From Candidatus Altiarchaeota archaeon (lineage in GTDB: Archaea > Altiarchaeota > Altiarchaeia > IMC4 > SCGC-AAA252-I15), in assembly GCA_043800255.1 (NCBI GenBank), contig JAZDNF010000009.1, forward strand, positions 256,001 through 320,000: a DNA stretch of 64,000 nt, in the 5' to 3' direction. The position numbers were made by a program, and so were the translations under genes. Shown here one piece after another: positions 2,109 through 38,376 of the stretch. The stretch's first letter is position 1, and the number at the start of each line of letters is the position of its first letter. Under the pieces are notes generated by a model. That model was not told where the DNA came from and made no database searches. It saw only the letters and a list, made by a program, of their open reading frames with translations.

Positions 2109-2441
2109 TTAGTCTTTCGGCCTCCATTGGTATACTTCATCATGGTGCAACGAACACCATTGTGTTCGTGCATGCGAATTCCAGAGGAATTCGCCATGGT
2201 CGTAGTAGTGGACGTCGACTATTTTGTTTTCGTGGTCGATTTTGAAGATTAGGACGAAGTGGGTGTCGATGTGCACTCGATTGAATGTTTGCAGCGGTTT
2301 CCGCAGATACTTGTATTTGTGGAACGGGTTCCGCCTGATCTCCGCAATCTTCTTGTCGATTATTCTGAGCTGTCCTGTGTTCTTCTTCGCCAGTTTCCTG
2401 AATATTCTGTCAGCCTCAGGTTTAACGCTCAAGGAGTACAT
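2109..2441 (-). CDS. RelE/YafQ-like type II toxin, copy 1, with a 17-aa in-frame insertion
   Basis: Basic RelE-like protein (RVHIDTHFVLIF); near-identical to 37859..38140 apart from the inserted segment HGEFLWNSHARTQWCSL. Confidence 0.8.
   Translation of the reverse strand: MYSLSVKPEADRIFRKLAKKNTGQLRIIDKKIAEIRRNPFHKYKYLRKPLQTFNRVHIDTHFVLIFKIDHENKIVDVHYYDHGEFLWNSHARTQWCSLHHDEVYQWRPKD
2141..2198. repeat. Palindromic mini-element inserted in the toxin gene
   Basis: CATGG..ACGAACAC-CATT-GTGTTCGT..GCGAATTCC-AGA-GGAATTCGC..CCATG; 51 bp absent from the paralogue. Confidence 0.8.
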
Positions 2442-37858: not shown

Positions 37859-38140
37859 CTAGTTTTTGGGCCGCCATTGGTATACTTTATCGTGGTGGTC
37901 GTAGTAGTAGACGTCAACCACTTTGTTTTCGTGGTCGATTTTGAAGATTAGGACAAAGTGGGTGTCGATGTGCACTCTGTTAAACGTTTGCAGTGGTTTT
38001 CGCAGATACTTGTGTTTATGACAGGGGTTCTGCCTGATCTCCGTAATCTTCTTGTCGATTGTTCTGAGTTGTCTTGTGTTCTTCGTCGCTAGTTTCTTGA
38101 ATATTCTGTCTGCCTCAGGTTTAATGTCTAGAAGATACAT
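37859..38140 (-). CDS. RelE/YafQ-like type II toxin, copy 2
   Basis: 93-aa paralogue of 2109..2441 without the insertion. Confidence 0.82.
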   Translation of the reverse strand: MYLLDIKPEADRIFKKLATKNTRQLRTIDKKITEIRQNPCHKHKYLRKPLQTFNRVHIDTHFVLIFKIDHENKVVDVYYYDHHDKVYQWRPKN

Positions 38141-38142
38141 CC

Positions 38143-38376
38143 TCAGCTTAAACCGTATCTCTTGGCAAAGTCATCGACGCGGATGCTTTTCTGTTTACTT
38201 ATCGACTTGATTTTTTCAATAAATTCAGGTTTAAGTTCAGGCTCGCCCTCATACTCGATAAACTCATTCACCACAAGGTCTATAGCTTCACCTTTATTTT
38301 TCAGACTATACCTAGCCTTAACAATATTCAGCACCCTGTTTGTATTTTCACCTATTTGAACCAGCGCATTAACCAT
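38143..38376 (-). CDS. Antitoxin (DUF2683-like), copy 2
   Basis: 77-aa near-identical paralogue of 2444..2677. Confidence 0.78.
   Translation of the reverse strand: MVNALVQIGENTNRVLNIVKARYSLKNKGEAIDLVVNEFIEYEGEPELKPEFIEKIKSISKQKSIRVDDFAKRYGLS

Follow-up and report, generated by a model that had tools for sequence, protein, structure and literature searches.

In the IS200/IS605 family of transposons, internal guide words within the folded single-stranded element serve to recognize both the target and the element's own end (the IS608 guide rule). Fungal mitochondria harbor double-hairpin elements, and Magnusiomyces the 'byp' elements; in both, two adjacent hairpins make up a unit of tens of nucleotides that is intergenic and sometimes coding. 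Ribosomal bypassing is known from T4 gene 60 and from the mitochondrial 'byp' elements. The REP, BIME, and REPIN sequences are short, palindromic, and mostly intergenic; they form dimers and clusters, and some intragenic ones encode 20–30 residues (PMC3733652). The REP tags are GTAG and CGTC, and head-to-tail dimers are described as absent or rare (PMC3733652). Rickettsia palindromic elements, as cited in the same source (PMC3733652), are palindromic repeats that lie in frame in protein-coding genes, and these genes may stay functional. According to the main text of a 2024 survey, the highest MITE density among archaea is that of Candidatus Altiarchaeum hamiconexum, with 146 per Mb, so dense tiny repeats in Altiarchaeota are on record (PMC11602168).

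Here we describe 51 bases inserted into a RelE-type toxin gene of an archaeon from this phylum. With reasonable confidence, we regard them as a double-hairpin element of ∼50–60 nt, a form of non-autonomous selfish DNA that, among the genomes searched, is confined to one order of Candidatus Altiarchaeota. Such an element would depend on an enzyme acting in trans, and the toxin that it entered is most likely weakened or dead.

A toxin gene with and without the insert

The window analyzed is a stretch of 64,000 nt from a Candidatus Altiarchaeota archaeon (GCA_043800255.1, JAZDNF010000009.1, positions 256,001–320,000, forward strand). The genomes compared with it are incomplete MAGs (93% for the genome of the window itself). 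Two paralogous two-gene cassettes are present, at 2109–2677 and 37859–38376, each on the minus strand and each composed of a DUF2683 gene and, behind it, a gene for a RelE-type toxin. In the first cassette, toxin copy 1 (2109–2441) is an open reading frame of 110 codons, including the insert; the gene upstream of it (2444–2677) encodes a 77-residue protein, the presumed antitoxin, which was assigned to DUF2683 by its match to Pfam PF10884 (E = 4.6e-7, 30.4 bits, cut-off 27). The second cassette consists of the paralogous DUF2683 partner (38143–38376), likewise identified as an open reading frame with a Pfam match, and toxin copy 2 (37859–38140, 93 codons). Pfam returned only weak HigB, ParE, and YhaV matches for toxin copy 1, all below the cut-off, and a ParE_toxin match of 22.9 bits for copy 2 (cut-off 23). 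A profile of the toxin family had no match among PDB sequences at E ≤ 0.01. When the core of the AF2 model of copy 1 was compared with PDB structures using Foldseek, it matched RelE, YoeB, YafQ, and ParE with TM scores of 0.74–0.83 (normalized by target). Its RelE-type fold and the small DUF2683 gene directly upstream place copy 1 in the RelE/ParE superfamily. Among 5.8 billion proteins searched, there were 289 homologues of 60–193 residues, some of them named YafQ or RelE by their source.

The two cassettes are ∼89% identical at the DNA level, and the sole gap in their pairwise alignment is a run of exactly 51 bases missing from copy 2, in which the empty site lies between 37897 and 37898. 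The preliminary description of this locus had noted these 17 additional, stop-free codons and had read them as an insertion, with an ambiguity of two bases (TG) at its edge; the data bear this out on all counts. The segment was missing from all 15 homologues that were aligned in full, one of which, P0001, is 98% identical to copy 1 when the insert is disregarded. In a toxin alignment of 108 sequences (drawing on 107 of the 289 homologues), the consensus (...YYDHHD.VY.W...) runs ungapped through the insertion site. An empty allele of the locus itself was found in a public groundwater sequencing run, X1. A contig of 2509 nt from this run, ∼96% identical to the window, matches positions 2043–2145 and 2197–2700 (with 3 and 19 differences, respectively) and skips 51 bases, two letters fitting on either side. 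On the plus strand, the empty allele reads ...ATC ATG GTG GTC..., and the gene strand accordingly encodes D-H-H-D. A second contig of this run, 4934 nt long, aligns with the window at 2143–2206 only, with 5 differences over 64 nt, and represents another copy of the element with the same immediate flanks. At ≥99%, the insert was covered by none of the public runs; X2 matched positions 2536–2700 only, and no RNA run was found to contain the locus. Support for the window's own assembly is indirect. Since the insert is absent from the homologues and a near-identical empty allele persists in X1, we regard it as derived and recent. An ancestral long form in orthologues, which the preliminary description had named as evidence against insertion, was looked for, and the homologues proved to be short. 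These alignments show that the short form of the toxin is ancestral and that an empty allele still exists.

The X1 empty allele has peculiarities of its own. Of the 19 differences in its 2197–2700 part, 17 fall within 2504–2615, in the partner (antitoxin) gene, and in the toxin that it encodes, a valine replaces the nearly invariant Asp59. Both the window and the X1 toxin alleles may be weakened.

The element family, its triplets, and its insertion sites

The element occupies positions 2148–2198 on the plus strand, antisense to the toxin gene, as defined by the alignment gap, the contig skip, and the covariance model described below; its boundaries can slide to the left by up to two bases. It contains the two back-to-back hairpins that had been noted from the start, both of them perfect. 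Hairpin A (2150–2169, plus strand) was identified by folding and has an 8-bp stem and a 4-nt loop; the same stem recurs in toxin-borne copies from two other genomes, G002 and G027. Hairpin B (2174–2194, plus strand), with a 9-bp stem and a 3-nt loop, was identified by folding and by comparison of copies. Folding of the stretch that holds the insert gave z = −4.06 as RNA and z = −5.52 as DNA, and in each case 0 of 200 shuffled sequences folded equally well. Three triplets on the same strand complete the structure. S1 (GTG, 2145–2147) is host DNA and, on the opposite strand, the first His codon of the HHD motif; it is retained in the empty allele and in the empty paralogue, and the element lies directly 3′ of it. 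The central triplet, S2 (2171–2173), is CAT here and CAC in most relatives; it is complementary to S3 and, with one G·T pair, to S1. The terminal triplet, S3 (2196–2198), is part of the insert and is missing from the empty allele; it is ATG here and GTG in most relatives. Relative to the family, the window copy is therefore a double change, in which S2 and S3 were altered together while S1 stayed GTG. The preliminary description had also proposed a stem of CATGG and CCATG that closes the two hairpins into a Y shape. Such a stem is present in the window copy; in G002, G027, and G022, the flanks of the copies are not complementary there. The closing stem depends on the flank of the window copy and is peculiar to it, and the three triplets are what the family conserves.

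A BLAST search with an 80-nt stretch as the query returned no second copy in the window's own genome, simple motif scans of this genome gave nothing convincing, and six element loci had no match in Rfam (evalue mode). The same BLAST approach yielded related copies in G002 (one), G027 (two), and G022 (two). A covariance model (R1) was built from eight copies, with only the two hairpins marked as paired and the triplets left unpaired. The window insert scores 72.5 bits against it (E = 5.6e-19). At E ≤ 0.01, matches to R1 were present in 27 of the 61 Altiarchaeota genomes, and 23 of the 61 still had them at E ≤ 1e-4. Every positive genome belongs to the order of the window (27 of 49); the two other families of the phylum gave none (0 of 12). 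Counted as unique sites with the strands merged, there are ∼20 elements in G022, 13 in G027, ∼11 in G032, and 7 in the genome of the window; G027 contributed 12 sites, on 11 fetched stretches, to the set of 63 sites used below. The six other copies in the window's genome are diverged relatives found by the covariance model only, and all lie outside long open reading frames. A tiny palindromic family without a gene of its own, as first proposed, is supported by BLAST and covariance model together, and the further copies then predicted do exist in relatives; in the genome itself they are limited to these six. A pattern scan of genome contigs gave 12 matches, of which 8 were real elements and 4 were bacterial chance matches, and the same scan of metagenome contigs gave 3, of which 1 was real. 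Including S1, the elements measure 49–61 nt for full-length matches of ≥40 bits and 42–67 nt over the whole list. Comparison of G022 with G027 gave no orthologous empty sites, and these genomes are too diverged for this purpose, because flanks align on one side only.

Among the element-overlapping open frames scanned with Pfam (90 of 146), the only Pfam-supported genes truly interrupted encode a ParE-type toxin and transposases. The element does not reach the domain in the genes for a glycosyltransferase, a radical-SAM protein, BofA, and ATP-synthase subunit c, where it is located upstream. Elements were found in or beside IS1595, rve, and DUF772 transposase genes. An open frame of 213 codons that runs across one element (L079) looks spurious, being of low complexity and without a Pfam match.

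Several observations concern the surroundings of the elements. All six of the other elements in the window's genome (C8:132965, C8:278868, C11:42345, C11:63623, C11:96815, and C13:14717) lie within ∼220 nt of a tRNA called by ARAGORN, one of them inside a predicted 113-nt intron of tRNA-Gly(GCC) (C8:278800–278991). With introns allowed, ARAGORN called 36 tRNA genes in this genome, many with long predicted introns (e.g., 733 and 1102 nt), and some of these may be over-calls. In the other genomes, the fetched flank contains a tRNA call at 9 of the 63 sites, and the element is mostly 12–111 nt downstream of the tRNA. At five loci of G022 and G027 (L054, L058, L059, L062, and L076), elements, sometimes paired, are nested in a larger inverted repeat with the ends GGTTTTCCAC...GTGGAAAACC, which looks like a composite repeat.

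On the strand preferred by the model (the plus strand in the window), the layout of the family is G-xy-C-A-A-CGAA, hairpin A, TTCG-T-G-y′x′-C-A-C-R-CGAA, hairpin B, and TTCG-Y-Y-G-xy, with inverted termini of ∼7 nt (CAACGAA and TTCGTTG). The stems vary widely among copies and their pairing is kept: across 59 distinct copies, the two best hairpins comprise 964 Watson-Crick pairs and 29 internal mismatches. G·T mismatches (10) and A·C mismatches (5) do not single out the strand that folds. The same stem "modules" occur in either hairpin position. In homologous insertions into IS1595 genes, one copy (L139, G047:C36) has a different stem-loop in place of the hairpin B found in the others (L028, L138, and L140), and this comparison of sequences suggests that hairpin modules are swapped in place. 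Pairing also extends to the triplets. In the 59 copies, S3 and S2 are paired in 172 of 174 cells and S1 and S2 in 148 of 171, a result that the model did not impose, since the triplets are unpaired in R1. When S2 was shuffled among copies, 0 of 2000 trials reached either count, although the copies are related and the significance is for that reason overstated. The triplets (S1/S2/S3) change as sets, as in GTG/CAC/GTG (16 copies), GTA/TAC/GTA (10), GTT/AAC/GTT (6), and GCG/CGC/GCG; two copies in the window's genome, outside the 59 counted, are of a GAG/CTC/GAG type.

Filled and empty alleles were used to assign the flanking triplets. In the window and the X1 allele, S1 is kept in the empty state and S3 is present only with the element. 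The second comparison comes from IS1595-family transposase genes, with four filled and two empty copies of a GTA-type element; the empty genes keep a single GTA where the filled ones have GTA-element-GTA. In both pairs, the insertion is 3′ of a short host word and the empty site is seamless, without an evident target duplication. S1 is variable at its first base (A, C, or T for G), whereas S3 almost always has G there, which fits with S1 belonging to the host and S3 to the element. Since both pairs show S1 to be host DNA, the element appears to land directly 3′ of a host triplet that is like its last one and complementary to its central one; this rule is drawn from two filled/empty pairs only, and the IS1595 pair would also fit a 2–3-bp duplication. 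S2 is complementary to the flanking word S1 and to the element's own end S3. What is observed is complementarity only, and the role of S2 as a guide is putative. By analogy with IS200/IS605, we infer a similar guide logic. While it moves, the element would be single-stranded and folded; an enzyme provided in trans would cut after S3 while S2 holds S3, and would then join the element behind a host triplet able to pair with S2 in the same manner. A target duplication of 2–3 bp at sites chosen otherwise fits the same data, and a site-specific crossover at a 2–3-nt core would give the same picture. In the window copy, S3 differs from S1 (ATG versus GTG).

The preliminary description had likened the element to REP sequences moved by RAYT nucleases and had suggested looking for a HUH/Y1 transposase with similar ends. 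The Y1 transposase domain (PF01797) was detected in 17 of the 49 genomes of the order. It was not found in the window's genome (G000), G002, G007, or G032, all of which carry elements, and G042, with 17 PF01797 matches, carries no element. At ten Y1 loci examined with filters off, there was no element within ∼1.5 kb, and the Y1 genes of G022 and G027 are not surrounded by short inverted repeats. This search, which gave no intact Y1 gene flanked by elements, lends no support to the RAYT analogy. At one locus (L103, G027:C230, 1330–1913), five elements are clustered: two in one orientation, then a fragment of ∼200 nt, then three in the opposite orientation. The fragment, the only hint of a Y1 link, weakly resembles the C-terminal part of Y1 (21.7 bits, below the cut-off); given the elements in or next to other transposase genes, it may mark no more than another landing in junk DNA.

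Insertions in toxin genes and their probable consequences

RelE-type matches numbered 58, in 27 of the 49 genomes, and four of these genes carry the element: toxin copy 1 of the window, one gene in G002, and two in G027. In all four, 51 nt have been added at the same codon boundary, directly before the host CAC that opens the HHD motif; 28 empty homologues read CAC (14) or CAT (14) at this site. The four toxin-borne copies have both hairpin stems in common, unlike other members of the family. A maximum-likelihood tree was calculated for 32 toxin genes (30 matches with fetched loci plus the two G027 genes, with the other 26 matches left out). The occupied genes fall into three clades, each of which includes empty close relatives. 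Occupancy requires three changes on this tree, the well-supported branches force all three, and 0% of the bootstrap trees allow a single change. We read this phylogenetic pattern as one sublineage that would have inserted repeatedly, at least three separate times, at one favored toxin site. Three hits on one and the same codon are more than a 3-nt target alone can account for. Before the cut, the host sequence (TCGTGGTG or TCATGGTG) is similar to the end of the element itself, TTCG-YY-GTG, and we would guess that mimicry of this end by TCGTGGTG/TCATGGTG is what makes the site favored; other family members have no such mimicry, and other copies share no longer target. Selection probably helps, in that only landings in dispensable genes survive.

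The position near the C terminus of RelE that was originally given for the insert is confirmed by the alignment, AF2, and Foldseek. The insert falls between the last β strand and a conserved C-terminal tail, H-H-D-x-V-Y-x-W. In the 108-sequence alignment, this tail is invariant at Y104 and W106 and nearly so at H99, H100, and D101; the corresponding tail of YoeB and YafQ holds catalytic residues. In the AF2 model, calculated from the 108-row alignment, residues 1–82 have pLDDT values of 80–88. The insert is unstructured, with segments below 50 and ten-residue blocks averaging 52 and 46. The window copy retains the tail in frame, behind a 17-residue loop that is predicted to be disordered. Because this loop splits off the conserved tail, the model and the conservation suggest that the window toxin is most likely weakened or dead. 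In G002 and in both G027 genes, an in-frame TAG in the loop of hairpin A cuts off the tail. The addition of peptide loops to proteins, which had been suggested as the purpose of the family, is at odds with this TAG in three sister copies and with the IS1595-borne copies, which add 52, 52, 48, and 55 nt. A length divisible by three, another point raised early on for intragenic copies, characterizes the toxin-borne lineage (51 nt) and is not a rule of the family. The insertion may persist because the toxin gene is dispensable. The second element-bearing toxin gene of G027 (L009/L073, G027:C21) has an additional in-frame TAA in its N-terminal half and, given this further stop, is probably a pseudogene.

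The main rival to repeated transposition is a single ancient insertion into a toxin gene, with later spread through conversion or recombination among paralogous genes and through horizontal cassette transfer. Toxin-antitoxin cassettes are commonly exchanged, and such a history would account for the hairpin stems that set the four toxin-borne copies apart from other members. It would also account for the G027 paralogues, which are ∼88% identical overall and share an identical run of 66 bases over the element. It sits poorly with the distance between the occupied clades, which have only 33–45% protein identity to copy 2 of the window, and with the empty close relatives of every occupied gene. 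Only ∼8 bases are common around the site, on one side, which is too little for ordinary homologous conversion to be likely. We consider spread from one insertion unlikely and prefer repeated insertion. Another objection would reverse the order of events, with an ancestral long form and deletions giving rise to the short ones, or would dismiss the insert as an artefact of assembly or a palindrome generated locally; it draws on the failure of BLAST to find a second copy in the genome. We give it almost no credence. It is already contradicted by the 15 complete homologues that lack the segment and by the consensus from 107 of the 289 that crosses the site without it. Copies of the same architecture are present in 26 other genomes, assembled by others, and the second X1 contig carries an almost identical element whose immediate flanks are the same (64 nt, 5 differences).

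A further question is whether the toxin might be intact after all, with the element removed or skipped during RNA processing or translation, either by archaeal endonuclease splicing or by ribosomal bypassing between matched His codons. His codons readable by a single tRNA (CAY before and CAC after) border the element in each of the four genes, and the downstream frame still encodes the HHD-x-x-Y tail, which the TAG in two of the three distinct copies would otherwise remove. The three downstream differences between the G027 paralogues are all silent or stop-to-stop, and members of the family occur in tRNA introns. Silent differences can predate a recent insertion, however, and the second, upstream stop of one G027 copy is what decay would be expected to produce. 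Inspection of the junctions by eye revealed no bulge-helix-bulge motif; in place of the two 3-nt bulges and 4-bp helix of such archaeal introns, there are single-nucleotide bulges only. Most members are intergenic or break the frames of transposase genes, so skipping is not needed to explain the family, and we think it very improbable that the toxin escapes damage by this route. Repeated insertion by a double-hairpin element, with probable loss or reduction of toxin function, is the reading that we retain. A more ambitious form of it can be offered as a tentative proposal, to which we give only a modest probability. A gene-less element of 50 nt would pick its site by pairing of its central 3-nt word with the host, and a change of that word would retarget it. 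One lineage would have homed to the catalytic-tail codons of RelE-type toxins, where it would disarm the toxin or make its synthesis depend on ribosomal bypassing via the matched His codons.

Relation to described elements

The preliminary description is supported in part. It was correct about the kind of sequence, a mini-element; support is lacking for the REP/RAYT mechanism and for a peptide-loop purpose. A literature search found no description of this double-hairpin family, and the term "double-hairpin elements" was met only in mitochondrial papers. What is new here is the triplet rule, together with the two empty sites and the finding that toxin genes were hit recurrently. Among archaeal mobile elements whose insertion and empty alleles, architecture, and target rule are all readable from sequence, this one would be the smallest. 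If the central triplet acts as a guide, it would provide a minimal and testable system for programmable insertion of single-stranded DNA in archaea. Repeated hits on the same codon in toxins would indicate that selfish elements can disarm other selfish genes. The family also calls for caution in annotation, since what looks like an unusual insertion, stop, or frameshift in a gene of Altiarchaeota may be a double-hairpin element.

The MITEs of A. hamiconexum are from the same phylum and are likewise tiny, dense repeats; the main text of the survey gives neither their sequences nor their architecture (PMC11602168). A classical MITE has terminal inverted repeats of ≥10 bp and a duplication of 2–10 bp; the inverted termini here are only ∼7 nt, and the apparent repeat is 2–3 nt. 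Mitochondrial double-hairpin and 'byp' elements share the two adjacent hairpins, the size, and the scatter between and sometimes inside genes. They belong to another domain of life and are unrelated in sequence, and bypassing is only hypothetical in the present case. Rickettsia palindromic elements are also palindromic and can sit in frame in coding genes. There is no sequence relation to them; in-frame insertion is the exception here (51 nt, in the toxin-borne lineage), and the host genes examined are themselves selfish (toxins and transposases). With REP and REPIN sequences, the family shares short palindromic repeats that are mostly between genes, form dimers or clusters, and are sometimes intragenic. 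It carries no GTAG or CGTC tag; the conserved words are instead G-xy-CAACGAA at the start and TTCG-YY-G-xy at the end. Its units are arranged head to tail, in direct orientation and with a common junction word, whereas those of REPINs are inverted. No RAYT gene flanked by the repeats was found in this archaeal host.

Close parallels exist with IS200/IS605 elements (IS608 and ISDra2) and their gene-less derivatives, the PATEs. The Altiarchaeota element differs in being only ∼50 nt long, in having two hairpins of different sequence, and in having a single shared central "guide" rather than one per end; its word is 3 nt, compared with 4–5 nt, and no Y1 transposase was found to be associated with it. 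In both groups, there is a hairpin near each end (here two in all, with stems that covary over 59 copies), the element goes in immediately 3′ of a short, fixed host word, leaves seamless empty sites, and creates no real duplication, and an internal word is complementary to both the host word and the end of the element.
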